Source: a virus (lineage: Duplodnaviria > Caudoviricetes). From it: a stretch of 64,000 bases of DNA. The notes under the pieces were generated by a model. That model was not told where the DNA came from, did no database searches, and saw nothing but the letters and a program-made list of their open reading frames with translations. The translations under genes were made by a program, and so were the position numbers. Below, in pieces: positions 7,094 to 47,495 of this stretch. Every line of letters begins with the position of its first letter. The stretch's first letter is position 1. The stretch spans positions 32,001 through 96,000 of the IMG/VR virus record IMGVR_UViG_3300037361_000044. One strand, given 5' to 3'.

Positions 7094-7229
7094 GATAGTA
7101 GAGCTTCAGCTACTACAATCCTTTGCTGCGGACCTGGCGCTGCACGAGAAGCTGAGCCCACATGACGCCTTGATAGAAACCGTGAGGTTTGTGAATGACT
7201 TTGAAAAGAAGGCTAAGGCAGAAACGTAA
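7020..7229 (+). CDS. hypothetical protein
   Basis: GGAGG RBS, 69 aa. Confidence 0.5.
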   Translation: MTRGLLHVNAEEPSDVSLALLVEDEIVELQLLQSFAADLALHEKLSPHDALIETVRFVNDFEKKAKAET

Positions 7230-7936
7230 ACGCGCACTACGTAAACTGCGCAAGCGCAGAGCGCTAGTGCAGCGGGAACAGCACCTAGCTCGAGAGACAA
7301 GGATCGCCAGCAGCATGGAGCAGCAGTTGATGGCTGTTCTAGTCATGAAGGCGCAAGCTGCGGCTGCTGAGAAGTTCCGGCAGTCCATGGCGGGTAGGTC
7401 CGTAACGGGCAGATCTATGGGTAAGTCCATGAACTTCGGGCTGCACCTACCGGCAAACAGTCCTTTGGGTACCGAGGAGGCTGAGGAGCTGCTTGCTACA
7501 TGGCTAGGTGCGTTCCCGGAATTAGGTGGGTATCTAAAGGACCCTGCCGCAGCCACCGTAAAGTACGGGCAGGCGGATTGGTCTGCGCTGGAGACTCGCG
7601 TCTTGGATTACGCCAAAAGGGATGCTGCGAGCACGGAAAGGTTGTACAAGCAGACCAATGAAGAGCTGCAAGGCAAAGGCGGGAAAGCACAAGAAGCAGG
7701 GAGACCGTCCTTGTCGGCAGCCATGGCGTGGGCGTACAGCGATATGGCAGGCAAGGAAGTGCGAGCAGGAGATTAGCGAGTACATTCAACGCAAGAACAG
7801 ACCGGCTGCTCCAGCCTTTGAAAAGCTGGCCTTGGCGATGGCCGAGGCGCGTATGGTGCAAGAAATACAACAGACAGAGGATGCGGAATTCCTCAATACT
7901 CTCGCACAGGACTTAGCCAATGTCGTACTTGAATAG
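7195..7936 (+). CDS. mosaic protein with scrambled family A DNA polymerase-like motifs; probable +1 frameshift near 7750
   Basis: TGR, KSMNFG, EAEELLATWLGAFPEL, ADWSALETRVL and DYAKRDA in 7195..7776; coding-like continuation in the next frame to 7936. Confidence 0.45.
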
Positions 7937-8375
7937 CCCAAAAGACCCAATACGCGACGTGCTCAAGGCTATGACAGGAAAAGCTCCACCAGCCTTCGTG
8001 CGCGGCTACACCTGTCACAACCTGCCAGACACCAAGTGGGATGCGTTGCAAAGCTGGGCTGTGAACAATTGCAAACCGTCCTACTTGACGGGCATAGGCC
8101 TTATTGAGGCTGCGCACCAGCAGGTGGATGAGGCTGTCAGTAACGGCAACATCCCGCCACCCGGCTACCCCTGCGGGAACCGCGTGGACTTTGTACTGAA
8201 GCTATTCAGGGCGTTGTCGAAACGGCACGGGGACCTGCTGGTGGAGCTGCGACAGGCCACTATAGAGTTGGCGTACAAGCAGAAGGAGGCAGCAGCCTGT
8301 CCGGTGGAAACCCATACCCGCACCAGGGGTTCGAAAAAGAAGTGGAGGATGCGCGTGTCCTCAACAAGGTCATGA
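7920..8375 (+). CDS. hypothetical protein
   Basis: 151-aa ORF in the cluster. Confidence 0.6.
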   Translation: MSYLNSPKDPIRDVLKAMTGKAPPAFVRGYTCHNLPDTKWDALQSWAVNNCKPSYLTGIGLIEAAHQQVDEAVSNGNIPPPGYPCGNRVDFVLKLFRALSKRHGDLLVELRQATIELAYKQKEAAACPVETHTRTRGSKKKWRMRVSSTRS

Positions 8376-8387
8376 AGGAGCCGCTCG

Positions 8388-8645
8388 ATGAACGAACCGA
8401 GAGTGAAGAATGTCGACCTGTTCTTGATGTGCCTATCCGAGGCAGCAAGTAACAAAGAGCTCCTGGCTGAGTTCGATAGACTCACTGGCTACAACATATC
8501 GCTCAGTGGCCCTGCCATCGTACAGGAGATCGATAAAGCCACTGGGCAACTCGAGGCAGGGGCCAAGGTGTTCTACGAGTTCGTAATGGAAAAGATCTAC
8601 TTGCCCGTGCAGGCGAAGATGGACGAAAGCGAAAAGAAGCAATGA
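8388..8645 (+). CDS. conserved phage hypothetical protein
   Basis: AAGGAG RBS; EFDRLTG...IDKATG motif. Confidence 0.65.
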   Translation: MNEPRVKNVDLFLMCLSEAASNKELLAEFDRLTGYNISLSGPAIVQEIDKATGQLEAGAKVFYEFVMEKIYLPVQAKMDESEKKQ

Positions 8646-8848
8646 AAGAGACCTTCTACGTGACCACGTTCTGCAACCACGCGCACCGGTTGGAAGACGG
8701 CAAGCCCATAGGCCACGAGTGCTATGTATTGCCCACTGCTGCCCTTCACGCTGAGAGGGATGGGAAGCTAGGCCTGGCTGTGGAGCTGCTCGGCAAGTGG
8801 AAGAGGCGGCGAGTACATCGTGGTCTGAAGAGTTGTGCACCCACCTGA
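8642..8848 (+). CDS. small Cys/His protein
   Basis: CNHAH...GHEC, ATGA-coupled. Confidence 0.55.
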   Translation: MKETFYVTTFCNHAHRLEDGKPIGHECYVLPTAALHAERDGKLGLAVELLGKWKRRRVHRGLKSCAPT

Positions 8849-9254
8849 GTACACGCCCTACAGCCGCCAGTTGATCTCGCATGAGCTGGCAGAGCTGCAG
8901 GAAGCCGAGGCAATGGAGCAGGACTTCGTGGACTATATGGAGCGCAAACGGCGCCCTAAAGTCACTGACCCTTTTGTCGGGCAGCTGTGGCGGCCACAGC
9001 CCATGATCATGAGCCAACACGACTACGATGACATCGTGGCGTGGGGTGAATCAATAGAGAAAGAGGAAGCGAGGAAAGAGAAAATGCGCATAGGGAAGTT
9101 CCTTATCATGCAGCAGCCAGTAGTTGGCACTGCACGACCCGTGGGCTCGAACCCGGATGAAACACGCACTTTGCAGCCGTTTGGGTCACGTGCTGCCAGA
9201 AGACTTGACGCAAAGATGCTTCGAGCGAAGGCAAAAAAGGGGAAATGTCGATGA
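8835..9254 (+). CDS. hypothetical protein
   Basis: 139 aa; contains MIMSQHDYDDIVAWG. Confidence 0.55.
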   Translation: MHPPEYTPYSRQLISHELAELQEAEAMEQDFVDYMERKRRPKVTDPFVGQLWRPQPMIMSQHDYDDIVAWGESIEKEEARKEKMRIGKFLIMQQPVVGTARPVGSNPDETRTLQPFGSRAARRLDAKMLRAKAKKGKCR

Positions 9255-9913
9255 ACAGAGAAGAAGCCATAGTTTGGATGCTTCGGCATCCTAAAGAGAT
9301 TCTGCGCGGGGAATACAGGCGTGTCGACGGTAAGCGCCGCCTGGACTACTGGATGTTCTTCAATGGTCACATCGTGACAAGCCATACAGACGCCGGGGTC
9401 TACAAGGCAAGCGATGCCTGGCTTCGCCGAGAGCTTGTCAGCTTTTCCGTGCACCACGTGACGTTGACCGAGTGGGCTGGGGCTGCATGCACGGTCACAG
9501 ACTGCATAGGACCGTTCCTTCGTCTACCAAGGGACTTCATTGGTAGACGGGTACGCGTGGCTGCCACCCCAGTGACCGTCATGTCTGGCAAAGACGCCAT
9601 GATTTGGATGCTCAAGCATACTGGCTGGATGGTGCGCTCAATGAGTCAAGCACATGGCAAGTCCAACTACGATGAGTACTTCTTCAGCAACAAGCATCAA
9701 GGCTTTAGAGGGAGGAACGGGGGCAGGGCCCGCAGCTACGCAGTGGACGCCGCCTCTCTGATGACCCAGGGCTTCACCGTCAGTGACACTTGGAAGGATG
9801 TGCTTACTACAACGTCGGACGCGTCCGGGCCGTACGTGCGGCTACCTGCGTACTACGAAGAGCAGGAGATGAGGGTACACGTGACCCTCGTGCAGGGACA
9901 AGAGGCAGCATGA
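9245..9913 (+). CDS. hypothetical protein with two-fold internal repeat
   Basis: AIVWMLRH..GPFLRLP versus AMIWMLKH..GPYVRLP. Confidence 0.65.
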   Translation: MSMNREEAIVWMLRHPKEILRGEYRRVDGKRRLDYWMFFNGHIVTSHTDAGVYKASDAWLRRELVSFSVHHVTLTEWAGAACTVTDCIGPFLRLPRDFIGRRVRVAATPVTVMSGKDAMIWMLKHTGWMVRSMSQAHGKSNYDEYFFSNKHQGFRGRNGGRARSYAVDAASLMTQGFTVSDTWKDVLTTTSDASGPYVRLPAYYEEQEMRVHVTLVQGQEAA

Positions 9914-10926
9914 TAACCAGCATAAAAGTCGGGATGCACGTACGTGTGGTGATACGGGGCACGTACCGTGAGCAGGATTGGCACCACGCTGCGGTGGACG
10001 CGCTGCACGGCGTCACAGGTACTGTTTCGGTGATAGAGCCGGACAAGCTCATGTGTCTGGTGTCCTTCGACGCGCCCGTGGAGAAGTGGGCCATGCGCAG
10101 TTCTGATCCAGACCCCGAGGCAAACCAGCTCACCTGCTTCCATTTTCACTTTGGAGAGCTCGAAGAGCTTCTCGAGAAGCGCGGGGCAATTACGTGCCGT
10201 ACGGATGCAAGCAAGCCCAACAACAGCAATGCCGGTGAACTGCATGCCGTGGAGTTCTCGGACAGGTTACCGGGTAGCGTGGACCTGCTGTACCGGGAGG
10301 TGGCTGCTGGACCTCCTGCGGGGTTCTGCGTGGAAAAAGCACCACACGCAACGTGTCCTGCGTGCGAAATGGAGGCGGAGCTCGGCACAGAAGATGTCCC
10401 ACATCCGATAGACCCGCGGGTTCACAGCTGCGCATTGGACAAGCAGGGCACTACTAGGTACGTAGCTGGCTTCTTCTTCGACCCCACCTTCAGGTACGTG
10501 GCCTTGGTGCTGAAGAAGCGGCCTGACTGGCAGGCTGGCAAATGGAACGCTGTTGGCGGACATGTGGAGGATGGTGAACCGGCAGGCGCAGCCATGGCCA
10601 GGGAGTTCCATGAGGAGGCAGGCATCCTTCACTATCGTTGGCGGCACTTTGCCACCGTAGTGGCAGCTGGTGCTGAATCTCAGCTGGATGCCTACTTTGC
10701 TGTTGGCGCAGAAGATGAGTACATCCGCGTCAAGACCGACGAGCAAGTGGATTGGGTGTCAATAGAAGGTGTACGCGATGGTGAATGGCCCGTGGTTACC
10801 AACACGAGATGGCTGCTGGAGCTGGCTCTATCGATCTGTCGGGGCGTAGACCCCTGCCAGTCCTACCTTATTCAAGAGGAGACAAAAAGAGATGTCGAAA
10901 GCACACCTGTCACGCAGCCACAATGA
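9910..10926 (+). CDS. NUDIX hydrolase domain protein (C-terminal)
   Basis: Nudix box GGHVEDGEPAGAAMAREFHEEAG; upstream KRPDWQAGKWN. Confidence 0.85.
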   Translation: MITSIKVGMHVRVVIRGTYREQDWHHAAVDALHGVTGTVSVIEPDKLMCLVSFDAPVEKWAMRSSDPDPEANQLTCFHFHFGELEELLEKRGAITCRTDASKPNNSNAGELHAVEFSDRLPGSVDLLYREVAAGPPAGFCVEKAPHATCPACEMEAELGTEDVPHPIDPRVHSCALDKQGTTRYVAGFFFDPTFRYVALVLKKRPDWQAGKWNAVGGHVEDGEPAGAAMAREFHEEAGILHYRWRHFATVVAAGAESQLDAYFAVGAEDEYIRVKTDEQVDWVSIEGVRDGEWPVVTNTRWLLELALSICRGVDPCQSYLIQEETKRDVESTPVTQPQ

Positions 10927-12360: not shown

Positions 12361-12371
12361 GGAGACTGCAG

Positions 12372-13445: not shown

Positions 13446-14321
13446 ATGAGTAGTAAAGCCGACCTGGTTGTGCTGCCGGGTCTTGTACTACCGTGGCGCG
13501 TAGCCAAGGGGTACTGGCAGCTGATAAGGAATGGGGTGTCTGTGAGTGTGCATCCGTACACCAGCTCATTCTCTGTGCAGCTTGCGCCCAACTGGCGTGA
13601 GGCAAAGAAGAGCGGCCGTTACACGTGCACACAGCATGCCGTAGATGGGTTGTTCGAATACTTGGTGGATAGCTGGCTGCTGGACGTGGTCATGGCTGAC
13701 GAGATAGATGGAACACAAGATGGACGAAAAAAAACACGAAGCATGATAGGCGATTACATCAAGAGCCTCCCTGAACCCAGTGAAGGCATGAAGCGCATGG
13801 CTGGAGTAGGCGCCGAGCACATACGTGGCAGGCTTGGGCTACCTCCAAAGAATGCGAGGTACGTGTTGGTACGCTTCTTCAAGCCCTTCATCCAGGCTAA
13901 GTGGTTTGGCATGGGCGGCAGGGAGGTAGGAGTAGCCTACTTTGGGGACCTTGAAGAGAAGTGGACTGTTGCCCTTTACGACATCCCTACGACAGTTGAC
14001 CCAGCTGCCGTTCTGCTGTTGCGCTTTGAACCACTGCAAGATGGGCCAGCCTTCAATGCTGGTCGCTGCTTCACGTGGACTGTGGGCATCGAAGACGTGG
14101 CAATTTGTCAGGTGCTATCGACGCGGGTGATGGAGGTGTTCAAAGCCTCTGACCCGTTCACCAGCAAGCGCATCGTTGGCTTCTCCAAGCTGGCGCCACA
14201 GGAGCCGTTGCCGCCCAGCGTAGGAGAAGTGGCGGTCAAGGTACTTGGAGAAGCCTTGGCACCAGTGCCTGAGTATCAGACTGACGCCTGGGGTGATGCA
14301 CTCGCAGCGCAGAGTACATGA
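13446..14321 (+). CDS. hypothetical protein
   Basis: 291-aa ORF, ATGA-coupled. Confidence 0.65.
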   Translation: MSSKADLVVLPGLVLPWRVAKGYWQLIRNGVSVSVHPYTSSFSVQLAPNWREAKKSGRYTCTQHAVDGLFEYLVDSWLLDVVMADEIDGTQDGRKKTRSMIGDYIKSLPEPSEGMKRMAGVGAEHIRGRLGLPPKNARYVLVRFFKPFIQAKWFGMGGREVGVAYFGDLEEKWTVALYDIPTTVDPAAVLLLRFEPLQDGPAFNAGRCFTWTVGIEDVAICQVLSTRVMEVFKASDPFTSKRIVGFSKLAPQEPLPPSVGEVAVKVLGEALAPVPEYQTDAWGDALAAQST

Positions 14322-14560: not shown

Positions 14561-15368
14561 AGTATACCGAGCAACCAAGAAGAACGACATCTGTGAAGGA
14601 TGCGGTGCATGCTGTGCCCCTGGTATCCTGGGGCAAAGGACTGGGCCCTACTTGGAGATTACACCCGATGACCTCAAGGATGACTTCAAGAGCAAGAAGA
14701 AGCTGGTGGTCAAGGACCAGATGTTCGGGGAGGGTGGCAAGCTATTCCTCCCAGTGATCCGCAGCAACCGTAACGACTTCACCCAATGCGAGCACCTAAT
14801 TGGCATGGTGCTGGGTGGAGGCCGTTGTAGCAGTTATGACACCCGGCCCACAGCTTGTCGTATCTTCGAACCAGGTGGGCACATGTGCCAGACGCTGAGA
14901 CAGGCATGGCTGGTACACCAGGACAAAGTGGTGTGGGAGAGGCTAGCTCATCCCGAGTACAGCCATGATGAGGCAGTCTACGCGGTGGTGGCCAACAGCA
15001 ACTGCCTAAACGTCTACTCCAAGGACCACCACATCCTCGAGTCCTTAGGCACAGGCCCCGATTATGTCCACCTGCGCAGGGTACGGGATGAGGAGCAACG
15101 CGCAAAGGAGACCAAGGTTGAGTACGCAACCCTGGACCTGCCCAAAGACACCGTGTCCCTGGTTGAGCGCAAGCGTATGTACCGCCCGGTGGGGGACTTC
15201 CGGAAGGCCCACATTGCGCACGAGGGTAAGGGCATAGACCCCTCCACGAGCTTTGCTGCCCAGGCTGAACGCAATGTACTGGCTACCCGCCGCCGCAAGG
15301 TGGCAGCCGCCAAGACACGCGCAGCTGAGAGCCCACGACCAAAACGGACAAAAACCAAGACCCGGTGA
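14544..15368 (+). CDS. YkgJ/CxxCxxCC family Zn/Fe-chelating protein
   Basis: CEGCGACC...CEHL...CSSYDTRPTACRIF. Confidence 0.8.
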   Translation: MMPTVEVYRATKKNDICEGCGACCAPGILGQRTGPYLEITPDDLKDDFKSKKKLVVKDQMFGEGGKLFLPVIRSNRNDFTQCEHLIGMVLGGGRCSSYDTRPTACRIFEPGGHMCQTLRQAWLVHQDKVVWERLAHPEYSHDEAVYAVVANSNCLNVYSKDHHILESLGTGPDYVHLRRVRDEEQRAKETKVEYATLDLPKDTVSLVERKRMYRPVGDFRKAHIAHEGKGIDPSTSFAAQAERNVLATRRRKVAAAKTRAAESPRPKRTKTKTR

Positions 15369-15447: not shown

Positions 15448-15912
15448 ATGACCACCTCCCAAGACCTAAAAGAAGCCTTCGCACTCCTGGACTCCACCCC
15501 TATCAAGCTGGGCGGGAACAACCCTCCCAACACTGCCTCATTCGTAGACGATAACCCAGACAACCCTGTCCAAATCTGCGACTCCAAGGGCAATCAGCTC
15601 TTGCTCATGTCCCTCGAGGACTACGAGGCAGCAAGAGCCTGGAAGCCCGAGGTCGAAGTCACCAAGGAGGGGGATACCCTGGTAGTGGCGCAAATCACAT
15701 TTCCAGAGCCCCTGAACTACCTGGTGTACGTGGCTCCACAGCCCAATGACGAGCTCGCACGGCTGGAGGCCAAGGCCGTGGATGAAATCCTCAGAGGCAG
15801 CATACTCCCAGCCCACATGCTGCAAGGTGCCCCCTTCGGGAATGAAACACCCTTGCCGCCACCCCCAGCTAGGCTTCTGGACCCCAGCCTCAATACCAAG
15901 GACTCGAAGTAA
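15448..15912 (+). CDS. hypothetical protein
   Basis: 154 aa, stop 1 nt before the next ATG. Confidence 0.6.
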   Translation: MTTSQDLKEAFALLDSTPIKLGGNNPPNTASFVDDNPDNPVQICDSKGNQLLLMSLEDYEAARAWKPEVEVTKEGDTLVVAQITFPEPLNYLVYVAPQPNDELARLEAKAVDEILRGSILPAHMLQGAPFGNETPLPPPPARLLDPSLNTKDSK

Positions 15913-23296: not shown

Positions 23297-23608
23297 ATGA
23301 GCGAAGTACAACTGATCGGGGTAACGAAGGGCATTAGCAAGCCGTCCAAGGTATTGGCCACCTTGGTGGAGCTGAACACATCAAGCCTGGTTCTGCCAGG
23401 GATGCCCGAGCGGCCTGCTGCAGATCCGAACATGAAGTTCCTGATGATCTGCATGCTGCCAACGCCGCAAGGGCAAATCCCTGTGGTTGTGGGAGGCCCG
23501 ACCAGGGGTGCCGTGGAGGCAGCTTTCAAGCTGAAGCTCTCTGACGCCCTGGTGCAGATGAGCGTTGTCTCCATGCAGCAAGTGGAGGTTGAGGTCCCTG
23601 GTGGCTAA
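23297..23608 (+). CDS. hypothetical protein
   Basis: 103-aa ORF with RBS. Confidence 0.6.
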   Translation: MSEVQLIGVTKGISKPSKVLATLVELNTSSLVLPGMPERPAADPNMKFLMICMLPTPQGQIPVVVGGPTRGAVEAAFKLKLSDALVQMSVVSMQQVEVEVPGG

Positions 23609-23864
23609 CGCTGCACGCCCAGCACCACTCACGCGCACTTTCAACAACTTGGAGCTGGCGTACACGCCTGGTCACGATTGGGTTGTGATTAGAGCCAGCT
23701 ACAAGGACTTCATCCACGGGTACGTGCTGGATGTGACAGGATCTCCCAAGCTTGAGCTGTCACTTGGGACTACTATCACGTTCGCTACGCTGTCAGTTCT
23801 GCAGGAGTTCGTGAAGACCTTGCTGGAGGGCACTACGCATGAACAAGCCGATAGCAGTGGTTGA
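23601..23864 (+). CDS. hypothetical protein
   Basis: GAGG RBS, GTG 23601. Confidence 0.5.
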   Translation: MANAARPAPLTRTFNNLELAYTPGHDWVVIRASYKDFIHGYVLDVTGSPKLELSLGTTITFATLSVLQEFVKTLLEGTTHEQADSSG

Positions 23865-24207
23865 TGGTCTTGTCATCGAGGATGGCGACCGCGTGCTATT
23901 CAAGGGGCAGCCCAAAGCGCGCAACAATGGTGTGTACGAGGTGCGTCGCGTACAAGCACGCATTTGCGACATTGGCCCGGAGTTGAAGGGCAGTGCTATG
24001 GCCAAGGTTGCGCAGCGGGCAGTGGAGGCGCTAACGGTGCTCCCTGTGCACGGGCTGATTACGGACATGGAGTCTCGCAAGCTTGCGCAGCGCATTCAGA
24101 GGTACGTAGCAAAGTACGGGATGTCCTTGATCACCACTGGCTTCAAGCAGTACGCGATACGCCGGCTGGAGGAAGATACACCGAAGAAGGCTTCGAAGAA
24201 GAAGTAA
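23839..24207 (+). CDS. hypothetical protein with tail-fibre-like N-terminal motif
   Basis: VDGLVIEDGDRVLFKGQPKARNNGVYEV. Confidence 0.6.
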   Translation: MNKPIAVVDGLVIEDGDRVLFKGQPKARNNGVYEVRRVQARICDIGPELKGSAMAKVAQRAVEALTVLPVHGLITDMESRKLAQRIQRYVAKYGMSLITTGFKQYAIRRLEEDTPKKASKKK

Positions 24208-24633: not shown

Positions 24634-24641
24634 GGTACTTG

Positions 24642-33794: not shown

Positions 33795-34019
33795 TCAGGG
33801 TGACGTCCACAGCATAGCTCCTTCTTTTCGGCAGACAGCAGCGTCTGCACGGCATTCATCGTTGCACTTGAGGTGGTTCATCGAGCCCACCTGGTTCTTG
33901 GAACTGCAGTGTTGCTCGCAGCGTTGTTCACGTGCACGGCATACATCGTTCGGCGCCGCGAAGCTAGAGCTCGCCAGCAGAAGGTATGCGCAGCTCAGGA
34001 TCCTTGAGTGTTTTGGCAT
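33795..34019 (-). CDS. small secreted Cys-rich protein
   Basis: Signal-like AYLLLASSSFA, then six Cys. Confidence 0.55.
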   Translation of the reverse strand: MPKHSRILSCAYLLLASSSFAAPNDVCRAREQRCEQHCSSKNQVGSMNHLKCNDECRADAAVCRKEGAMLWTSP

Positions 34020-34500
34020 AGACTCCTTTGTCAATGAATGTTTGTACTAGCTCAGCGTATTGTTGAAGCACCTCACGCCCTATGCCCTCGTTGTGTAGAA
34101 GGTAGGCCATGCGCGAGGCCAAGTACAGCAGCTGCCGCAGCGGTGGGTCCACGCAGGCGGGGCAGTCCACCCCAAGCACCTCTCCCAGTGCCGCGGTCAT
34201 ATCCACGGTAAGCGGCACACCACGCGGCGACGTTAGCTCGTACAAAGCTTCTCGCACCTTGCCCGTGTAGCGCTTCTCTTCGTACTGACGCACTGTGCGC
34301 AGGTGAGTGCCATATTCGTTGGTACTCTCCTTGCCCACCGGGTAGTTTCCGCCAACATCGAAGACGTGCTTACTGGCGGTAGTAACCAGCGTGCGCCCGA
34401 CTTTAGCTATGGTCGTATGTAGCACCCGGTCAGCCGCGTTGTTGATGTTGTACCGAAGCACAACCACTTCCATGCCTACAGGCCAGTCAGCTATCGGCAT
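33964..34500 (-). CDS. hypothetical protein (beta-barrel type)
   Basis: TIAKVGRTLVT motif; 178 aa. Confidence 0.6.
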   Translation of the reverse strand: MPIADWPVGMEVVVLRYNINNAADRVLHTTIAKVGRTLVTTASKHVFDVGGNYPVGKESTNEYGTHLRTVRQYEEKRYTGKVREALYELTSPRGVPLTVDMTAALGEVLGVDCPACVDPPLRQLLYLASRMAYLLHNEGIGREVLQQYAELVQTFIDKGVYAKTLKDPELRIPSAGEL

Positions 34501-35050
34501 TGCTGAGTCCCTTCACGAGTGAGGCCACATCGTCGTATGGCGCTGGACCGAAATCCCATGCGTCCACTCCGAGGCTGATTGAGGCCGGTCCTGTGACCTT
34601 TGTCGTTGCGTGGCTGTGCCCGTGCAGCAGAATCTCTCCCTTGTGCCTACGAGGCCGAAGAGCCTTGTACTTGTCGGGCTTCTCCACACTGGCTGTCTTG
34701 TACGGGTAGTGGCTGAGGCGGCAGGGTACTTCGCCGATCTGCATGACCGCTTCGTGAAGCACTAAGCTGAACCCCATCGAGGCCATGGTTGTGTCTCCTT
34801 GGTCGTGGTTGCCCACGATGAGAATTTTGTAGCCGCAGAGCTCGGTGAGCATGTTTCTGTATCGTTCGGTGTCTCCTTTGAAGAAGCAGTCGCCAAGCCA
34901 GACAACTGTGTCATCTGGCCCGACCATACGATTGTAGTTGTCGGCTAGCGTCAGGTTCATCTCCTCAATGTCAGAGAAGGGTCTGTTGCAGTAGCCGATG
35001 ATGTTTGCGTGAGCAAAGTGTGGGTCTGAGAAGAAGGCTTTGATCTTCAT
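34487..35050 (-). CDS. calcineurin-like metallophosphoesterase
   Basis: SDPHFAH, LGD, GNHD, SHYP, LHGHSH, GVDAW. Confidence 0.92.
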   Translation of the reverse strand: MKIKAFFSDPHFAHANIIGYCNRPFSDIEEMNLTLADNYNRMVGPDDTVVWLGDCFFKGDTERYRNMLTELCGYKILIVGNHDQGDTTMASMGFSLVLHEAVMQIGEVPCRLSHYPYKTASVEKPDKYKALRPRRHKGEILLHGHSHATTKVTGPASISLGVDAWDFGPAPYDDVASLVKGLSNADS

Positions 35051-35307
35051 GCTGACTTTGGTTGCATCCCATAGGTGCGTTGAAAGAGGATGTGCTTTAC
35101 GATCATGCGCGCGCGGATGAGGCCCTTGTCCCCTTCGATGAACTTCTTCTTCACCGCATCAAAGGGAAGTCCTGCGGCGGTTGCTACGATGGTTAGGTAG
35201 AAGTCTCTATTCTCTAGGACCTTCTGTGGTGCGATGTCTGCGTCGTAGGCTGCTTTCAGCAGCAGTTGCTGGTCAATAGAGGCCTCAGAGTCTATGTTGA
35301 CTTTCAT
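35047..35307 (-). CDS. small protein resembling an isolated PolA fingers/motif B segment
   Basis: DFYLTIVATAAGLPFDAV...RMIVKHILFQRTYGMQP. Confidence 0.5.
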   Translation of the reverse strand: MKVNIDSEASIDQQLLLKAAYDADIAPQKVLENRDFYLTIVATAAGLPFDAVKKKFIEGDKGLIRARMIVKHILFQRTYGMQPKSA

Positions 35308-35326
35308 GGCGGGTTCATCCACCTCT

Positions 35327-35720: not shown

Positions 35721-35936
35721 TCAAGACTTGCTGCGAGCATGCCGCCGTGGCGGCCGTTCGAAGCTGGCTCCGCACCAAGGACAGAACTTCACAGCCACCT
35801 ACTCAATGGCGTAGCCCCGTATCACAGCTCCGCTTCCCCAATCCTCTGCCAGAAGTTGTACGTGCTGATGATATGGAAAAGGGCTGGGTGTATCGGCTAG
35901 GCGTAGGTACTTCTTTCCCGATTCACAGCAGTCCAT
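35721..35936 (-). pseudogene. CC...FCPWCG zinc protein interrupted by an in-frame TAG
   Basis: MDCCESG...GYAIE*VAVKFCPWCG; TAG at 35799-35801. Confidence 0.6.
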
Positions 35937-36183
35937 GTTGTTCCGTCGGTAGGGTGATGTCCACTAGGTCCAGGTCGAAAGTGGTGAGCTTGGTGCGCAC
36001 GCAGCTGGCGTTCAGGTCGTCCCAGGTGAGGCCTTCGCCATGCCCGTGCGTGGGTTGGTCACACCTGGAGGCACACTCGGCAGCATGGGCACAGGATTGC
36101 CGCTTCTCTTTGAAGTTCCCAACGCACTCGGGTGCGGTGTAGGAGAAGAGTAGTCCAAGGCAGTGTGGCTTCTGCGAGTTCAC
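35923..36183 (-). CDS. small Cys-motif protein
   Basis: PHCLGLLFS....ECVG..C.....C, shared with 36602..37696. Confidence 0.6.
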   Translation of the reverse strand: MNSQKPHCLGLLFSYTAPECVGNFKEKRQSCAHAAECASRCDQPTHGHGEGLTWDDLNASCVRTKLTTFDLDLVDITLPTEQHGLL

Positions 36184-36605
36184 AGCTCCACCTCGCTGAC
36201 CAGCTCAACTATGCTGGCTGCTGCCGTGCTGCTGAAGTCCCAGAGTGCATCTCGACGCTTCTGGTGCTGCACAGGGTCAAGTCCTCGAGGACGTACAGCA
36301 GCCGTGGTGATCCAGGAGCGGGCGGCCTCGAGCGCCTCATCCAGGTCTGAGCAGTGTCCGTGAGTACCAGCGCGATCCTTCTCCCACAGCCTTGCGTCGG
36401 CCACGGCCCTGGCCAGGATGTAGTCCCTTGACTCCCCTTTGAGCTCCTTGGCCACCACCGCCAAGTAGCTTCGAACGTAACCGACCAGCATGTACTTCAG
36501 GGAAGCACTGTGCCAAGCGTCTGTGAGCTCGCTCGCGGTTAGTTCACTCGGTGTCCCCGCTATAGGTCGTAGAGTCTTGCGTGTCTGCAGGTCTGAGTCG
36601 GTCAT
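36180..36605 (-). CDS. hypothetical protein
   Basis: AAGGAG RBS after a class A promoter. Confidence 0.65.
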   Translation of the reverse strand: MTDSDLQTRKTLRPIAGTPSELTASELTDAWHSASLKYMLVGYVRSYLAVVAKELKGESRDYILARAVADARLWEKDRAGTHGHCSDLDEALEAARSWITTAAVRPRGLDPVQHQKRRDALWDFSSTAAASIVELVSEVEL

Positions 36606-37696
36606 GGTGTGTCTCCTTCTTCTCTCTTATGCCGGAAACCGGCTCTCAGTTGCACCAAGTGCTGTTGGCTGTTCTCCTTGCAACCCTTCCATGCGTCGCA
36701 TTCAGGTACATCCGTTCTCCCTAAGCACTCCACTGCCGTTGCCGAGAAGGATTTCCCGAAGCATGGCGGCATAGTAGCGGACGAGCCAGAGCGGATCTTG
36801 CAAGCTCTGTGCAGGTCACAGGCTGGCTTGTACGGACTGGTGCCGCACTTGGTACTACCCACACAATCGGGTTCCTTAGTTGAGAAGTGTATTCCAAAGC
36901 AGGCCGGGGGTAGGGACGGCGTTGAGCTGCGTGGCAACTCCGTTGCAGCCGTTGCAGTGTTGTAGACTTTGGCTGCGATGTTCTCTTTGATGATGGTGCG
37001 AGCTTTGTCCTTGAGCTGTTGCAGCTCCTTAGCAGCCGCTTGTTGCTCGAGTTCCTTCTTCTGCAGCAGCTTCTGTCGTTGTGCTTCTTTACGGGCCGCC
37101 GCCTGGGTGCGTAACTCCACTGCGCGCAAATCTTCTACGAAGAGTCGGTCTGCTCTCTCTTCTGGGGTTTCATTGATCCAAGGAATGGCCAGTACGCGCT
37201 CAGGGGGTTTCTTGAATCCTTCCTCCCAGTGGGGGTCGAAGTCAGACGCCAGCGCGCTTGCTTTTTCCTCTTCTTCCTCTTCATCCTCAGGTTCCTCGGT
37301 TTCTGGGGTCCACGCGCCAAGCACCTTCTGCATTTCCTTGCGTATATCCTCTTGCAGGATCTGCAACGAATCCTCGGACCACAGCGTGCCGTAGGTCTCG
37401 TAGTCCGTTGCACGCTTCGACTTGCGGTGTTCACGTCCGTCCAAGATCATGCCCCGATACAACTCGTCGCGGCACTCATGGCACATTGGTGAATGCCCGG
37501 CTTTCATGGAGGCACGAATCTGGCTAAGTGGTCTTTGTGCGTATCGTCCGCAGGTGCATTGCAGCATCCATACGTTTCTACCCGCATAGTTCTCTACAAT
37601 GTGCAGAGCGGTCAGCTCGCCAAACCGGCGCCCCTTCACACCATCTTCATCCAGCGCCAGCTTCTCCTCTGGCAGTACCTGTGCTGTAGCTTGCAT
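36602..37696 (-). CDS. multidomain protein: HNH-endonuclease-associated N-terminal motif, acidic tract, coiled coil, two Cys4 repeats
   Basis: GRRFGELTAL...WMLQCTCG; PACFG/PPCFG repeats; AAGGAG RBS. Confidence 0.65.
   Translation of the reverse strand: MQATAQVLPEEKLALDEDGVKGRRFGELTALHIVENYAGRNVWMLQCTCGRYAQRPLSQIRASMKAGHSPMCHECRDELYRGMILDGREHRKSKRATDYETYGTLWSEDSLQILQEDIRKEMQKVLGAWTPETEEPEDEEEEEEKASALASDFDPHWEEGFKKPPERVLAIPWINETPEERADRLFVEDLRAVELRTQAAARKEAQRQKLLQKKELEQQAAAKELQQLKDKARTIIKENIAAKVYNTATAATELPRSSTPSLPPACFGIHFSTKEPDCVGSTKCGTSPYKPACDLHRACKIRSGSSATMPPCFGKSFSATAVECLGRTDVPECDAWKGCKENSQQHLVQLRAGFRHKREEGDTP
36626..36654 (-). promoter_or_regulatory. class A promoter TGCAAC-N15-GGCATAAG
   Basis: Recurrent motif. 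Confidence 0.65.
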
Positions 37697-38262: not shown

Positions 38263-39249
38263 TTAGCGGCTCACAGTCTTTCCCTTGCTCCGTGGTGTAT
38301 TTTTGAACGCCTTGTTCAGAATGGTCGCTGGGTAAACGCCAACCGCGCGGCGCGCCCCGTTGATCTCCTCAGTAGCCGTCTTTGGTGGCTTGTGCCCGTA
38401 CTTGTCGATGAACAACGCGGTCGCGGCTCTACCCAGGGAGCTGTTGGCGACTGGAGCGTGTTCTGGCGTGTGGTTGCTGCGCCAGCTGGAGATGCTGTAC
38501 AAAGGTGCGCTTGGCGCAAGAGTGGCTGAGGGAGGATCTGTTTGCGCTGTCGAGGCAGTTGGCGTAACCACCACTATAGGCTTTGGCTTCTTCGCCTTGG
38601 CCGCGGCACCCTTGTTGGCAAGGGCCTTTTCACAGGTGGTTATGACCTCAGCCATTTGGGTTGTTATGGCGCGTGCCCTGTCTTCTAGTGAGGTTGCCTC
38701 CTCCAGCACCTGTTGCGGGCTTTCCAGCTCTGCTAGCTGCCCGCGCAGATCTTTTATGGCGTCCGTGTGTACGCGTACTTCTCGTTTCAGCTCCTGCACG
38801 TCCCCTGCTACAGCATCTAGGCTTGGGGCGACAATGATGCCTTGCTCCTGCTGCACAAGGGCCGTAGTCCGGTTGTACTCCTCCACAGCTAGTACATGGT
38901 TGAGCAGTAGGAAGAATGCTTTGACGTACTGTACGAGCAACGCACTGGCATTGGGGGTGTCCGACTTGCCGACGAGGAACATGACCTGGGGCTGGTTGAA
39001 GGCCATCTCTTCGAAGTCACGGGTAGCTCCTTGTCCCGCCTTGAGCTTGACCTGTACGGTACAGGTCTTGCCCAATTCTGCGAGTTTTTCGGCATGTCTG
39101 ACCGCCAGCTGCCTCAATGTGTCCTTGTCCTTGTACCCCAGCAGGTGGGCGAGGTCGGTGAGGCTGATGCGGGCTTGCTCTATGGCTTCCACCGTGGTCT
39201 CAGCCAGGTGGAATGGGATGCTGTTCTTGACGATTACGATGTCGGTCAT
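38263..39249 (-). CDS. phage antirepressor-like DNA-binding protein
   Basis: N-terminal ISLTDLAHLLGY...FNQPQVMFLVGKSDTPNA (Bro-N/Rha-like), coiled coil, C-terminal GRAA...YG..P.K...VGVYP; class A promoter core at 39287-39294. Confidence 0.7.
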   Translation of the reverse strand: MTDIVIVKNSIPFHLAETTVEAIEQARISLTDLAHLLGYKDKDTLRQLAVRHAEKLAELGKTCTVQVKLKAGQGATRDFEEMAFNQPQVMFLVGKSDTPNASALLVQYVKAFFLLLNHVLAVEEYNRTTALVQQEQGIIVAPSLDAVAGDVQELKREVRVHTDAIKDLRGQLAELESPQQVLEEATSLEDRARAITTQMAEVITTCEKALANKGAAAKAKKPKPIVVVTPTASTAQTDPPSATLAPSAPLYSISSWRSNHTPEHAPVANSSLGRAATALFIDKYGHKPPKTATEEINGARRAVGVYPATILNKAFKNTPRSKGKTVSR

Positions 39250-39422
39250 GGTTCTCCTGGCAGTTGGATGTTCTGCCCTCAGGTTGCTTATCCCTGTTCT
39301 GCCTGCGCTTTTCGACGCAGAAAGGCCCCCACCGGCAACCGATGAGGGCCTACTTGCAAGCAGCTTGGGGTCGACTGTAAAGTTTTGGACCCCTGATTGT
39401 AAAGTTTCTGAACAGCCGGTCG

Positions 39423-40586
39423 CTAAACGGTCTTGCCATCCACGGTAACCGACAAGGCATCGGTGACCACGATGAGGCGGGTGGTTGCCGTCGGCGCGGG
39501 GACAGGTACTGGAGTCGGCGTAGGCGCCACGGATCCTTGTAGGGCAGCGAGTAGCTTGGTGCCAACAGGCACGCCCATACCCGTGCAGCAATCGTAGCCT
39601 GCGCGCGCGGCGTAGGTGCCATTGTTGCCCACGGTGATGTCACGGCTCCAGCCAGCTAGGGCGTAGAGCTTATCGTTCATGAAGCCAACGTTCTTGCCCA
39701 AGGCTTGGCCCAAGCAGACTGAGAGGGCCGCCCACATGGGAGCAACTGCGCTTGTTCCTCCAATTACCAGCTGCTGCCCATCCACGATGATGACCCAACC
39801 GGTGTCGGGATCGGCGTTGCCACCCACGTCGGGTACACCGCGGTATTTGGCACCTGGTACGTTGGCTAATCTTTGCCAGTCCGGAAGGAGGAAGTGGGAG
39901 CTCACACCCCCGCCAGTGGCACCACCAGCGCTGCCGTCATTCCATACCGTCTCGTTGATGGGTGAGGTGGCGACCAGTGCTGTGCCTCCACAACCAAGCA
40001 CGTACGGGGAGCTGGAGGGGAAGTCTACATTCTTGCCAGGAAGCCCATCACCGGACCCGTTGTCCCCAGCCGCGGCTGTGACCGTGATTCCTGCGGCGGC
40101 AGCCTTAGCGAAGGCCGTGTTGAAACTGGCCATGACCGCGTCGGTCCAGTCCTTCTCTGGAGCTCCCCACGAGATGCTGATGGCATCCATACCGTCGGTG
40201 ATGGCCTGGATGATGGCCGCTAGGAATCCTGCGTCGGTGTTCGGAGCTGTGTAGCAGTGGAGCTCAGCACCTGGGGCCATGCCACCGATGACGCACAAGT
40301 CGAGCATCACTTCGCCGTCGGCCCCATCTGGTCCGTCCGAGGTGTTTTTGGCACCTTGAATCGAATGGAACAACACGGGCTTGACCGTGAGGCCCAAGCT
40401 CTTGAAGTAGGTGTCGAGGTCTGCTTGGTTGTAAGCTCCCCCAAGTTCGATGACGGCAACTTTCTTGCCGGTACCGGTGGAGCCTGGCGGGAATCCGTAG
40501 AAGGCAGCCAACTGTTTCGGAGTGTAATTGGTCCCGGTAGTGTGGTTCTTGAACCGTCCGTGCTTGAGGTATGAACGTAGTTTCAT
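39423..40586 (-). CDS. S53 (sedolisin/kumamolisin-like) serine peptidase, catalytic domain only
   Basis: DGEVMLD (Glu/Asp), SISWG, AAAGDNGS, GGTSAVAP (Ser), Ca site DITVGNN..GYDCCTGMG. Confidence 0.92.
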   Translation of the reverse strand: MKLRSYLKHGRFKNHTTGTNYTPKQLAAFYGFPPGSTGTGKKVAVIELGGAYNQADLDTYFKSLGLTVKPVLFHSIQGAKNTSDGPDGADGEVMLDLCVIGGMAPGAELHCYTAPNTDAGFLAAIIQAITDGMDAISISWGAPEKDWTDAVMASFNTAFAKAAAAGITVTAAAGDNGSGDGLPGKNVDFPSSSPYVLGCGGTALVATSPINETVWNDGSAGGATGGGVSSHFLLPDWQRLANVPGAKYRGVPDVGGNADPDTGWVIIVDGQQLVIGGTSAVAPMWAALSVCLGQALGKNVGFMNDKLYALAGWSRDITVGNNGTYAARAGYDCCTGMGVPVGTKLLAALQGSVAPTPTPVPVPAPTATTRLIVVTDALSVTVDGKTV

Positions 40587-42844: not shown

Positions 42845-42850
42845 TACAAC

Positions 42851-43697: not shown

Positions 43698-43769
43698 CGA
43701 GAAGAAGCACACCAGCGAAAGAGCAACCTACCAGGTGTATTTCCCTGGATTCTTTCGAAGGAGGCCGTT

Positions 43770-44350: not shown

Positions 44351-44475
44351 GTACCTTCTGGCATTGCTATTCACTTTCCTGCCGTTCGCGGCGGGTTACT
44401 TAGTTGGGTTCCGTAGGGGGCTCTATCGAGCCCAGAAAGGAGGAGGCGTGCAAGCTTCCTCGAGGAAGGCGTCGG

Positions 44476-44808
44476 ATGTCCAGAGGTAGGAAGCCGACGT
44501 ATCGATTGCTCATAACTGAGAAATTCAACAAGAAAAGTAAGACGTTTGCAGGAGTGGCATTTGCGGGCAACTTCAACTCCTTGAACATCTGCCTGAATCC
44601 CGGAGTCCGGCTGGATTGGCGGGACATGGACAGTGTTTGGCTCACCTTGGTACCGTACACGGGGGACTACAATGCCCCCGATGTGGACCCAGGGCCTGCC
44701 TCAGATGTTGAAGAGCCTACAAAAGTAGAGCAAGCTGAGACCAGTGCCAATGACGACAAGCCCGAAGAAGGACGACCCCCATCAAGAGACGACGACTTCC
44801 CCTTCTGA
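44476..44808 (+). CDS. putative single-stranded DNA-binding protein
   Basis: Small beta domain, acidic linker and SSB-type C-terminal DDDFPF. Confidence 0.6.
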   Translation: MSRGRKPTYRLLITEKFNKKSKTFAGVAFAGNFNSLNICLNPGVRLDWRDMDSVWLTLVPYTGDYNAPDVDPGPASDVEEPTKVEQAETSANDDKPEEGRPPSRDDDFPF

Positions 44809-45394
44809 GAAGATCCGAGTCTTGTTCGATGTGGATGGCGTCATTGCTGACTACGCTCAGCTACATGTGCATGCTGTGATCGCCGCGGGGGTGCGCAACA
44901 TCCCCACGGCATGGCGTCCTAGTCAGTGGGACATCAACAAGGAGTTGAAGCTGACGAAAGAGGAAGCAGACAGGGTTCAGAAGCTCGTAGACTTTCCAGG
45001 CGCAGCCAAGTCGCTGGTCCCGTTTCCTGGGGCCGTCGAGGCGGTCAAGCGTATGGCCGAGATTGCCGACGTGTACTTTGTGACAGCCATCATGCCTGAC
45101 AGCCCCACTTGGGGGTTCGACCGCACTGAGTGGTTGAAGGAGAAGTTCGGCAATGAGCTCGGAAAGAAGTTTGTGCTCACCGATCACAAGTACCTCATAC
45201 CTGCGGCGTACTTGGTAGATGACAAGGTGGACAACTGCAAGACCTGGGAAGCATGGAACCCTGGAGGCATCGCACTACGATGGTGCGTGACCGGCATGTC
45301 CTTAGAGAAGGACCTCATCAATGTTACGGACTGGTCGACTGTTGAGAGGTTTGTGGAGATAGCAGCGCAACGCAGGGCGAACTTTCTACGTTGA
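44750..45394 (+). CDS. HAD-family 5'(3')-deoxyribonucleotidase (NT5C-like)
   Basis: FDVDGVIAD, PFPGA, YFVTA, K, LVDDK. Confidence 0.88.
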   Translation: MTTSPKKDDPHQETTTSPSEKIRVLFDVDGVIADYAQLHVHAVIAAGVRNIPTAWRPSQWDINKELKLTKEEADRVQKLVDFPGAAKSLVPFPGAVEAVKRMAEIADVYFVTAIMPDSPTWGFDRTEWLKEKFGNELGKKFVLTDHKYLIPAAYLVDDKVDNCKTWEAWNPGGIALRWCVTGMSLEKDLINVTDWSTVERFVEIAAQRRANFLR

Positions 45395-45448
45395 ACGAGG
45401 GCCGCCCGCAAGGGCGACCTTTGCTAGCTCACAGAAGGGATGGGGATC

Positions 45449-45631
45449 ATGAATTCAACATTGGCGAAGGCATGGGAAGTACTGCTGGTGATGCAGCAGT
45501 GGGCGTGGACCGGCTTGCGGTGGTTTTTGATGGTGATGGGTGCGGCGACGTTGTTGGCCCTTATTGTCGGAATTGGAGTCGGCAAGTACTTCTCGAACAA
45601 GGGCATAAGCGGAGCTGAAGGAGACAAGTAG
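45449..45631 (+). CDS. small membrane protein
   Basis: Single TM helix. Confidence 0.5.
   Translation: MNSTLAKAWEVLLVMQQWAWTGLRWFLMVMGAATLLALIVGIGVGKYFSNKGISGAEGDK
45581..45609 (+). promoter_or_regulatory. class A promoter GGCAAG-N15-GGCATAAG
   Basis: Exact bipartite motif upstream of the AAGGAG RBS of 45634. Confidence 0.6.
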
Positions 45632-45633
45632 TT

Positions 45634-46086
45634 ATGGGCAAGCGTCCGGTTCTTTCGAACTACCCGCACCTGCACAGTATCCTGCGGAACGACCCGGTCG
45701 CGAACCAGCAGTTCAATGCCGCAATCTCTGGCCTCAGCCTACCCAACACTGGTAGCGAGGAAGCTAGGCTACAGAAGCAGCTCGATGACATGCGAAAGTC
45801 GCTCATCGCCCAAGAGACCAAGGTGAAGGAGGCCGGTAGGCTGCTTATGCGGCAGCGGGCATTCATCAAGCTCTTGGGCGAGGTCATCGAGTCGCAGACA
45901 AAGCTCGAGCCGCACACCACAGACATCGACCGTGGTAGGAGATACGACATCTCCTTCAGCCCTGACAACATTCGTGTGGCTTTGCGGTTGTACTGGGATA
46001 TTTTGTCTAAGGATATGGAGTCCTCCATCGCGCGGGTGGTGAGCATCAAAGCTGCGCAGGAAGCTCCAGAAGATGAGCTTGAATAG
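45634..46086 (+). CDS. coiled-coil hypothetical protein
   Basis: 150 aa. Confidence 0.65.
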   Translation: MGKRPVLSNYPHLHSILRNDPVANQQFNAAISGLSLPNTGSEEARLQKQLDDMRKSLIAQETKVKEAGRLLMRQRAFIKLLGEVIESQTKLEPHTTDIDRGRRYDISFSPDNIRVALRLYWDILSKDMESSIARVVSIKAAQEAPEDELE

Positions 46087-46555
46087 CGGAAAGAGTAGCG
46101 CTGCTGACCTCAGGTGGAGGCGGCAGCGCAAAGCTCTGGACAAAGCCAAGGCTGACAGGAAGGCCTATCGTCGCTACGTTGTGATCAAGACGTCAGAGGA
46201 CATGGAGGCGGAGTTCGTTCGACTCACATTTGCTAAGGAGCGGCATGTAGTCGGCGTCGACATTGGCGCCGTAGAGTCCGACCGCTCAGCGCTTGTGGCG
46301 GGTCGACAGCTTGGAAAGAACCTGTACATCGAGTTCATTCAGCACATACAGGCCGAGACTCGCTTCATGTTTAGCACTCCAGTGCAGGAGCTGAACGAGG
46401 CAGCGCTGCACGAGATAGAAAGGATCCTAGATGACTACGAAGCCTCCGTTGGGTCAGATTCAAAGGACCCCGGCACACCTAGAGTGGAGAGTATCCGCAG
46501 TGACTTGCGAAAGCTCTTCGGAGTTCGCGGCGGCGCTGCAGGAGGAGTTGAATAA
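46073..46555 (+). CDS. hypothetical protein with terminase-nuclease-like segment
   Basis: HVVGVDIGAVESDRSALVAG...LYIE. Confidence 0.5.
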   Translation: MSLNSGKSSAADLRWRRQRKALDKAKADRKAYRRYVVIKTSEDMEAEFVRLTFAKERHVVGVDIGAVESDRSALVAGRQLGKNLYIEFIQHIQAETRFMFSTPVQELNEAALHEIERILDDYEASVGSDSKDPGTPRVESIRSDLRKLFGVRGGAAGGVE

Positions 46556-46688
46556 GAACACCGCTGAGGGCTTTTCGTTAGCCCAGATGTTCGTACGTGG
46601 ACCAAATTCGGACGCAATACTGGTTCATCAGCGGGTTACGGTACAGCCCGCGAGCGAGCCACCCAGTTCAGCAGAAGGAATGCACTAA

Positions 46689-47495
46689 ATGGAAACTGAA
46701 GAAGTCGAAGGCACGATGACCTTGGAGATCGCTCAGAAGGAAGTAGTTGAGTGGGCGTTGCGAAACTTCGGGGAGCAGGGTTCCTATCGCCCGTTGATGG
46801 GCATGCTGGAGGAGCTCGGCGAGTTCTGTGAGGCAAGGGATCGGTTCGACGTAAAGAACATGCGTGACGCCATCGGCGACATCGGCATCTACATGTTGCA
46901 CTACTGTGCCATCCGCGGCTGGAGCATGTCCGAGCTCTGGGACGACAGGGTCGGCCCCACTGGCCCCACCATGTCCACGGTGAAGGCGCTGTGCCACAGC
47001 CAGCTCAAGGGCGAGCAGAACATTCGAGGTGGTGCCGCCAGGCATGACTTCCTTCTGAAGAAGGAGCTGTCCAACCTGCTGTGGCGCATGGACCAGGCAG
47101 CCATCGATGTTGGCACCGACTGCTTGGTGCTGATTTACAACATCTGGGAGAAGGTGAAGCAGCGGGACTGGCAGAAGAATCCCAACAACGCGGACAAGGT
47201 TGCTGCTGGTGCATCGCCCGAGGGTGCTGGGGGCGACTCCCCAGTGGTGCTGGAAATTCTTGCTGAAGAGGATGCCAAATTTATAGCGGACATAGATGCA
47301 GCAGTGGAGGCATCTCGCTGCGAGGACACACTACGTCCAGATGAGACGCCAGCGTTAGCCGAAACAGCGGAAGCGTTTCACGCCATGCTGGAGAGCAAGA
47401 ACCCATCTAGGTCAATGTTCAGCATGGAGCTCATTGAAGACACCCCGGAGGTCCCGGGTCCCGAGGCTCACAGGAATACGGTGTCCAATGGCTGA
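46689..47495 (+). CDS. MazG-like nucleotide pyrophosphohydrolase
   Basis: WALRNFG, EELGE, DAIGDIGIYM, WEKVKQRDW; tandem helical repeat. Confidence 0.8.
   Translation: METEEVEGTMTLEIAQKEVVEWALRNFGEQGSYRPLMGMLEELGEFCEARDRFDVKNMRDAIGDIGIYMLHYCAIRGWSMSELWDDRVGPTGPTMSTVKALCHSQLKGEQNIRGGAARHDFLLKKELSNLLWRMDQAAIDVGTDCLVLIYNIWEKVKQRDWQKNPNNADKVAAGASPEGAGGDSPVVLEILAEEDAKFIADIDAAVEASRCEDTLRPDETPALAETAEAFHAMLESKNPSRSMFSMELIEDTPEVPGPEAHRNTVSNG

Follow-up and report, generated by a model that had tools for sequence, protein, structure and literature searches.

A probable hyperplastic accessory region in a complete phage genome, with new small genes probably arising by module insertion and in-frame fusion

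The IMG/VR phage record IMGVR_UViG_3300037361_000044 (190,298 bp, rated complete by CheckV) contains at its bases 32001-96000 a stretch of 64,000 nucleotides, hereafter the window. Its positions 7195-47495 hold about 70 small genes lying among nucleotide-metabolism and regulatory genes (Table 1). In the accessory open reading frames (ORFs) of this span, an initial annotation recognized short snippets of core virion and replication proteins and proposed that they form either an early-expressed library of core-protein epitopes acting as immune decoys or a micro-recombination gene factory. The peptide strings it listed are all present in the window, seven motifs exactly where reported and two with slightly different spacing. 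The span is described here as a probable hyperplastic accessory region, in which genes would originate from inserted and fused modules. The documented case is the chimeric gene g090, in which a 360-bp insertion joined a piece of a virion domain to an older gene body.

No near match to the phage genome was found among 50,697 deposited phage records, given which the clade appears to be undescribed. A total of 257 genes were called with a codon-usage model. The phage encodes a single-chain beta-beta' RNA polymerase (g205, a 2133-aa RNA polymerase beta-like protein in profile searches), a PolA (g185; PF00476, E 3e-51, the sole match to this family in the whole genome), an HK97-type major capsid protein or MCP (g223; phrog_2522, E 1.4e-12) and a TerL (g212; phrog_675, E 5e-55). 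Since neither PHROG nor Pfam identified a portal or a sheath protein, all large proteins were taken as targets, that is all 53 proteins of at least 300 aa and 53 conserved families instead of the named core proteins. In IMG/VR, 295 relatives of the MCP were found, many of them on contigs of 184-196 kb. Four complete relatives (G001-G004) were compared whole, together with three loci (L132, L133 and L145) of a closer relative, a Logan contig of 189,951 bp. Five further genomes (G005-G009) were also searched.

The small genes of the region are replaced quickly. For most small ORFs between window 5 and 33 kb, G001-G004 contain no homologue, despite MCPs that are 87-91% identical. Most of these ORFs are present in the closer Logan relative, in unchanged order and with 45-90% identity, which identifies them as real genes within a hyperplastic region. 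Short modules are common to small and large proteins of the phage (g120/g122/g194 and g162/g170/g156), and the N-terminal domain of g176 is also present in four small ORFs of relatives.

The origin of one of these genes could be reconstructed. Residues 7-36 of g090 match phrog_17264 (E 2.7e-6), phrog_11518 (tail fibre, E 5.9e-5) and phrog_2647 (head decoration, E 3.2e-4). The same PHROGs are matched at E 1e-73 to 1e-31 by g170, the phage's own 900-aa virion protein, which contains two copies of the domain, and the N-terminus of g090 aligns to both g170 repeats (shuffle p<=5e-4). The N-terminus of g090 is thus evidently homologous to the g170 virion domain, and this appears to be the sole secure homology among the snippets that had been listed. 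The tail-fibre-type motif reported in this ORF is present, its spacing being slightly different, and its likeness to a virion domain is real. PHROGs 27782, 2647, 11518, 24595 and 17264, which share this domain, are annotated as tail fibre, head decoration or virion structural protein. The g090 residues match the start of the domain, DG..h..GDRVL...Q....NG[IV]Y, but g090 possesses only about 30 of its approximately 100-180 residues, fused to an unrelated accessory domain, and it shows no other sign of being a virion protein.

Residues ~40-122 of g090 constitute this accessory domain, which ends in a basic tail and is conserved in G001-G004, and the first 35 aa are missing from three homologues (70-87% identity). 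The DNA alignment to the closest relative breaks at window positions 23604/23965 against L132 positions 10004/10028. The 360-bp insertion so delimited starts directly after the ancestral start codon, which is reused by the new ORF g089. It also supplied 42 new codons, carrying the virion-domain piece, that are joined in frame to the older body of g090. In G002, another small accessory ORF bears the ~28-aa virion-domain unit of g090 at its C-terminus.

Pieces of a core protein are also found in small ORFs of two relatives. Among 1064 ORFs, the MCP profile hidden Markov model (HMM) matched the singletons G004_260 at E 1.1e-5 and G001_117 at E 3e-4, the best decoys being at 0.018 and 0.11. HMMs built on MCP segments gave E 1.1e-7 and 4.3e-6, and hhalign gave P-values of about 2e-6 and 8e-6, respectively. 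The MCP likeness of both ORFs therefore appears clearly significant, which implies that capture of core-gene pieces does occur in this clade. Neither ORF is present in the other nine genomes examined; in the five further genomes the only match of either was the MCP gene, with no small-ORF homologue. G004_260 sits in a region syntenic with window 9-15 kb, and a decayed MCP copy around it was considered and discarded for want of colinear flanking pieces. The two pieces could be separated from noise by profile methods only: tblastn of MCPs against five genomes yielded no excess over reversed MCPs, whose E-values were equally low.

A family of small proteins is defined by an N-terminal leader, which is Arg/Lys-rich and followed by KhA..ME.Rh, the C-terminal parts being unrelated. 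Ten ORFs matched the leader HMM at E<1e-3 with no reversed decoy among them, and x7195 did so at E 1.3e-8, all reversed decoys being at 0.013 or above, so that the family can be regarded as real. In this genome x7195 is the sole member detected by the HMM, which ruled out g070 and g140. In relatives the family forms small arrays in G002-G004 and is absent from G005-G009. Where leader ORFs contain a piece of a conserved protein, it comes from the MCP or from residues 5-61 of g176. The shared module measures ~30-45 residues, and the capsid targeting sequence of T4 is likewise a short common N-terminal leader on otherwise unrelated small proteins. The present leader differs from it in being Arg/Lys-rich with the KhA..ME.Rh motif, in occurring once in this genome and in being known from sequence alone.

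Behind its leader, x7195 displays strings resembling PolA, in which the initial annotation saw a PolA patchwork. Aligned by hhalign to the phage's own PolA, it matched motif A with P 1.1e-3, motif B with P 2e-3 and ExoIII with P 1.3e-2. The corresponding residues of x7195 (73-127 for motif B, 113-152 for motif A and 136-158 for ExoIII) fall within 85 residues and follow the order B, A, ExoIII, so the native order and spacing of the PolA motifs were not found. Both the leader and the motif-like residues persist in the homologue from the closest relative (L145:5382-5942, 38% identity), which reads K..DFG, DYSMLERRIL and YAAADVAATVALH. Searches of x7195 returned nothing in Pfam at E<=0.1, no PolA with phmmer in PDB, and the PHROG DNA polymerase phrog_17 only at E 0.034; the homologue had no PHROG match. 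What stands of the patchwork is three weak profile matches on PolA motifs, with no PolA match in Pfam or PDB, and the likeness may be called plausible, borderline and not established.

At least 12 small proteins, g063 among them, form a family characterized by an N-terminal EYTP..RQLISHE block, the motif hhMSQxx[YWF][DE]DI[VL]x[WY] and a basic tail at the C-terminus. Conservation is highest in the motif, where D66 and I67 are nearly invariant. The Smith-Waterman alignment of g063 to the phage's own MCP had p<=0.001. On the proteome, the top non-self match of the family HMM was MCP residues 217-235 (E 0.011); conversely, an HMM of the MCP segment placed g063 at the top of the list in five proteomes (E 0.014). 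Comparison of the family with the MCP by hhalign gave P 3.4e-5 and 72% probability over MCP residues 201-235, against 0.075 for the reversed control, and this P-value had improved from 1.8e-3 with a single sequence to 3.4e-5 with 12 sequences. In G008, where g063 has no homologue, the sole match of the family profile was the MCP gene (E 0.011). Other results point in the opposite direction. The alignment is limited to 19-34 columns, the whole-MCP HMM ranks g063 only at E 0.24 among 1064 small ORFs, and in the same hhalign scan the unrelated NT5C enzyme g137 reached P 2e-4 against the MCP by chance. An AlphaFold2 (AF2) model of g063 predicts three helices (predicted local distance difference test, pLDDT, 69; predicted template modelling score, pTM, 0.24) and not the HK97 fold. 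In this model the motif would form a structural element that is very common, an N-cap at a strand-to-helix transition in which S/T-x-x-D precedes an amphipathic helix. Homology to an HK97-type MCP past this one short motif was not found by HMM, hhalign or AF2, and whether the relationship is true is a borderline, near-even matter. A related-locus search seeded with g063 returned nothing, and P0007, a 936-aa acidic repeat protein, was dropped as a relative, its match being one of composition only.

As a separate observation, K/R-rich C-terminal tails, with K or R at five or more of the final 10 positions, occur in seven proteins where 1-1.6 would be expected, for example at window 8835-9254, 14652-15368 and 23839-24207 and at genome 165968-167208 (two, directly downstream of the MCP). 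A shared C-terminal tag system was considered and rejected, seven such tails being too few and too simple.

The frequency of core-protein likenesses in the span was assessed against null models. Smith-Waterman alignments of 71 accessory ORFs of the span to 46 large proteins encoded outside it gave 101 pairs at E<0.03, against 102 for reversed and 70-87 for shuffled controls. An HMM scan of the 53 conserved families against all small ORFs of five genomes, in which decoys appeared overall from about 0.01, gave nothing significant in the window, where the best real match had E 0.013 and the best decoy 0.13. When 239 small ORFs were aligned as single sequences to the MCP profile by hhalign, 3, 12 and 30 of them fell at P<0.01, 0.03 and 0.1, in agreement with the uniform expectation of 2.4, 7 and 24. 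No set of co-located genes with a common architecture matched core proteins above the null. Among the flagged ORFs there is no common family, apart from a weak x7622-g063 likeness (p 0.0015), and no link to defence sensors was seen. Any excess of core-protein matches in these all-versus-all alignments is therefore weak, and the outcome is essentially one of no enrichment. Nor are most of the snippets kept in relatives, as illustrated by the N-terminus of g090, the VVMADEID string of g071 and the tail of g141.

Because it holds a single real borrowed piece and two borderline ones only, the region looks like ordinary gene mosaicism and not like a decoy library. The span would probably have been shaped as follows. 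Short modules would be inserted at gene boundaries and then fused in frame, generating new small genes, occasionally with a module from a virion or other conserved gene. The small genes would evolve fast and often be replaced. The outcome would be a few true short similarities amid many chance ones that stem from generic local elements, for instance helix N-caps or hydrophobic-strand-plus-acidic motifs. This reading draws on the replacement pattern, on the insertion from which g089 and the chimera g090 arose, on the g090-g170 homology, on the leader family and on the MCP pieces in the two ORFs of relatives. Recombination capture, and not selection for mimicry, would account for the captured pieces, and the g063-MCP and x7195-PolA likenesses, if real, would have the same capture origin. 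Insertion and fusion here are ordinary phage mosaicism at low frequency. From the proposed micro-recombination factory there remain the insertion-fusion event and the leader ORFs with their pieces, and no dedicated factory. T4-like and other large phages possess hyperplastic, or plastic, regions with mosaic small genes and 'moron'-type insertions. Like these regions, as generally known, the present one consists of small, fast-evolving and often lineage-specific ORF blocks between conserved modules, with insertion at gene boundaries and domains common to unrelated proteins. In contrast to them, one insertion here lies within the first codons of an older gene, whose start codon was reused, and it also fuses a virion-domain piece to the old gene body.

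Several results weigh against this reading. No DNA source of the 360-bp insertion was found in five genomes. At E<0.003 the Smith-Waterman comparison yielded 18 real pairs, with 9 for reversed and 5-8 for shuffled controls, about a twofold excess, although 5 of the 18 stem from g113 and the excess is not significant without it. This Gly/Ala-rich, Gly-zipper-like protein has many compositional matches to larger head-region proteins, which inflate naive snippet counts. A piece of a larger conserved protein is carried by 3 of 12 leader-bearing ORFs and by 10 of 1052 other small ORFs (P 3e-4, or 0.008 when two homologous g176 cases are counted once), an excess that hints at a designed architecture. 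Finally, the conserved parts of the g063 and x7195 families are precisely the core-like motifs; being the best conserved in their families, these motifs suggest a functional role and look less like passive debris.

In a rival reading, the clade would make mini-proteins on purpose, each exposing a conserved core-protein piece of 20-40 residues (from the MCP or PolA motifs) on a simple carrier, either the Arg-rich leader or a basic tail. Candidates for this role would be the families of g063 and x7195, along with those ORFs of relatives that join the leader to an MCP piece. Such proteins would serve as decoys or blockers of host capsid or polymerase sensors, or would modulate assembly or competing phages in a dominant-negative manner. 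The g063 motif, conserved across 12 members and most like MCP residues 201-235, the retention of K..DFG, DYSMLERRIL and YAAADVAATVALH-type strings in the x7195 homologue, and the enrichment of the leader family for conserved-protein pieces all speak in favour of such mimics. However, no single match in the window survives correction for all ORF-by-core tests, and the enzyme g137 matches the MCP profile at P 2e-4 by chance. The MCP-piece ORFs are singletons, and the leader family has one member in this genome and none in five relatives. Pieces of ~30 residues taken from larger folded domains are unlikely to present native epitopes, and a capsid-like peptide could trigger a sensor as easily as block it. 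The purposeful production of such mini-proteins is thus decidedly improbable, and it would be just as surprising if they mimicked capsid or polymerase surfaces so as to blunt host sensors or hinder rival phages. At the other extreme, all likenesses except that of g090 could be chance or convergence on common local structure, since the motifs were chosen by eye from ~25,000 codons, where short matches of this strength are expected. The uniform distribution of hhalign P-values against the MCP, the reversed-MCP tblastn control, the very common N-cap modelled for the g063 motif and the lack of any link of x7195 or g117 to PolA in Pfam, PHROG and PDB searches are consistent with this explanation. 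Against it, the addition of homologues strengthened and did not dilute both the g063-MCP likeness and that of the g071 N-terminus to the MCP (from 0.014 to 3.4e-4), the three separate matches of x7195 coincide exactly with motifs A, B and ExoIII of PolA, and the two MCP-piece ORFs are clearly significant. Chance as the whole explanation is accordingly rather unlikely, though worth keeping in mind, and low-frequency capture within a hyperplastic region is retained as the probable account.

The idea of immune decoys was suggested by known defence systems. CapRel, Lit and Avs sense the MCP, the terminase or the portal. The Gol peptide of T4 gp23, sensed by Lit, and the MCP sensing of CapRel-SJ46 (PMC13728456) illustrate that a short MCP stretch can be recognized alone, and the g063 motif and the two ORFs of relatives similarly resemble MCP stretches of ~20-40 residues. 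A review reports that CapRel senses both the MCP and the small protein Gp54 (PMC13728456). In these systems, however, the capsid piece is part of the capsid gene and acts as a trigger of the defence, and no separate decoy phage gene is described there; the present phage is, moreover, known as a genome sequence only. The literature searched describes capsid proteins as defence triggers and no separate capsid-fragment decoy gene. With one secure snippet, two borderline ones, weak enrichment and poor conservation, the epitope library found no support. It would constitute a new anti-defence principle if true, which the present evidence does not carry. Of use are a documented case in which a gene was born in a phage accessory region by insertion and in-frame fusion, a g063 family motif oddly like a capsid segment, and a leader family joined to MCP pieces in relatives.

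Table 1. Location of the genes and other features discussed (window positions unless a locus is named)
Feature	Position	Strand	Description
x7195	7195..7776	+	193 aa; Arg/Lys-rich N-terminal leader with PolA-like strings behind
Leader, this genome	7195-7362		Leader-family locus
x7622	7622..7936	+	Doubtful gene containing VQEIQQTEDAEFL; first 155 nt overlap x7195; not picked by gene caller
g063	8835..9254	+	139 aa; member of 12-member small-protein family
NUDIX	9910-10926		
g071	13446..14321	+	Contains VVMADEID; conserved gene, real start probably near residue 94-99
g074	15448..15912	+	154 aa; conserved small gene directly upstream of g075 (1027 aa)
g089	23601-23864	+	New ORF on insertion; ancestral start codon reused
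360-bp insertion	23605..23964	+	Relative to closest relative; DNA alignment with L132
g090	23839..24207	+	122 aa; chimera, from PHROG matches, g170 alignment and conservation in relatives
DNA ligase	26961-28106		
g113	33248-33529		93 aa; Gly/Ala-rich, Gly-zipper-like; conserved at 67-81% in all relatives
ProQ-C-like protein and metallophosphoesterase	33964-35050	-	
g117	35047..35322	-	86-91 aa; real small gene
Rha/Bro-like protein and subtilase	38263-40586	-	
g137	44750-45394		NT5C nucleotidase
g140	46073..46555	+	160 aa; ORFan with basic N-terminus
g141	46689..47495	+	268 aa; MazG-like pyrophosphatase; non-conserved C-terminal tail holds LEILAEEDAKFI
Leader array, G004	L131:1694-4772		Leader-family locus
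Leader locus, G002	L102:7290-8557		Leader-family locus
Leader locus, G003	L119:11295-12131		Leader-family locus
G004_260	L131:2780-2986 (G004)		68 aa; singleton matching MCP residues 56-98
G001_117	L097:3871-4080 (G001)		69 aa; singleton matching MCP residues 6-40

The remaining ORFs highlighted by the initial annotation mostly lost their proposed likeness. The supposed PolA fingers-like ORF, g117, has a homologue only in G001 (37% identity), in which its YGM is replaced by HGV. Its similarity to PolA does not rise above chance (Smith-Waterman p 0.17-0.20; hhalign P 0.076 against 0.18 reversed), and it had no match in Pfam (E<=0.1) or PHROG, its phmmer matches in PDB being noise without any PolA. 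The terminase-nuclease-type string VVGVDIG..DRSA does occur in g140, with slightly different spacing, but the likeness of this ORF to TerL has p 0.10-0.11. No match of g140 to Pfam or PHROG and no similarity to TerL or a terminase profile were found. It has no homologue in G001-G004, the corresponding region of the closer Logan relative lying outside the comparison.

The Walker-B-like VVMADEID of g071 is located among 93 N-terminal residues that are lacking in a 514-aa homologue (L133:796-2340, 65% identity). As this homologue begins at the position aligned with g071 residue 94, the string belongs to a non-conserved and possibly untranslated extension. No ATPase domain was recognized: g071 matched neither Pfam nor PHROG, and a P-loop NTPase with Walker A and Walker B in a conserved domain was not found. 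The conserved N-terminus of g071 shows a weak likeness to MCP residues 6-37 in hhalign, which is the likeness strengthened by added homologues, and the MCP HMM misses g071. Similarly weak N-terminal likenesses to MCP residues 1-45 were noticed for g108 (window 31489-32028) and G004_197.

The motifs of g074, supposed to recall capsid, sheath and portal segments, found no counterpart in core proteins, all Smith-Waterman comparisons to MCP, TerL, PolA and RNA polymerase giving p>0.46. This gene shares 48% identity with L133:6195-6911 and 70%, over residues 5-67, with G001. LLLMSLEDY and EILRGSILPAHML are conserved, but not the W of the motif nor ITFPEPLNYL. Its pairing with g063 (strings near 9010 and 15605), reported as a recurrent motif, has a shuffle p of 0.016 and an HMM E of 0.19 and was not upheld. 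The same applies to the pair near 7860 and 47250 (shuffle p 0.14), whose strings lie in the doubtful x7622 and in the tail of g141. The latter protein matches MazG-like phage pyrophosphatases over residues 10-144 (phrog_1992, E 2.2e-4), its Pfam MazG score (PF03819) of 17 bits being below the 22-bit cut-off. It is conserved in all four relatives only over residues ~2-177; in contrast with the MazG-like part, LEILAEEDAKFI sits outside this conserved portion.

Compared with MCP residues 104-143, x7622 gave a Smith-Waterman p<=0.001, an hhalign P of 0.006 (6% probability) and an MCP HMM E of 1.1. It was rejected as a conserved gene, its tblastn match to G001 consisting of 33 nt of conserved DNA and basic low-complexity sequence. 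This DNA, at window 7694-7726, is 85% identical to G001 (~136144-136176), where it lies just upstream of the g060 homologue; its flanks are not alignable. GGAC..GTCC occurs in this stretch, for which a regulatory role is possible.

Paralogues and shared modules were also noticed elsewhere in the genome. They include g048/g050 (window 527-2902), g091/g102 (24256-25259 and 29417-29788) and g092, which resembles g172 at 45% identity (g172 being at window 79510-80103, past the window end). A domain of ~55 aa is common to g120, g122 (window 35923-37696) and g194. A module of ~60 residues is found at 42-53% identity in g156 (residues 348-398), g162 and g170, at window 60294-63377 and genome 102904-110798.

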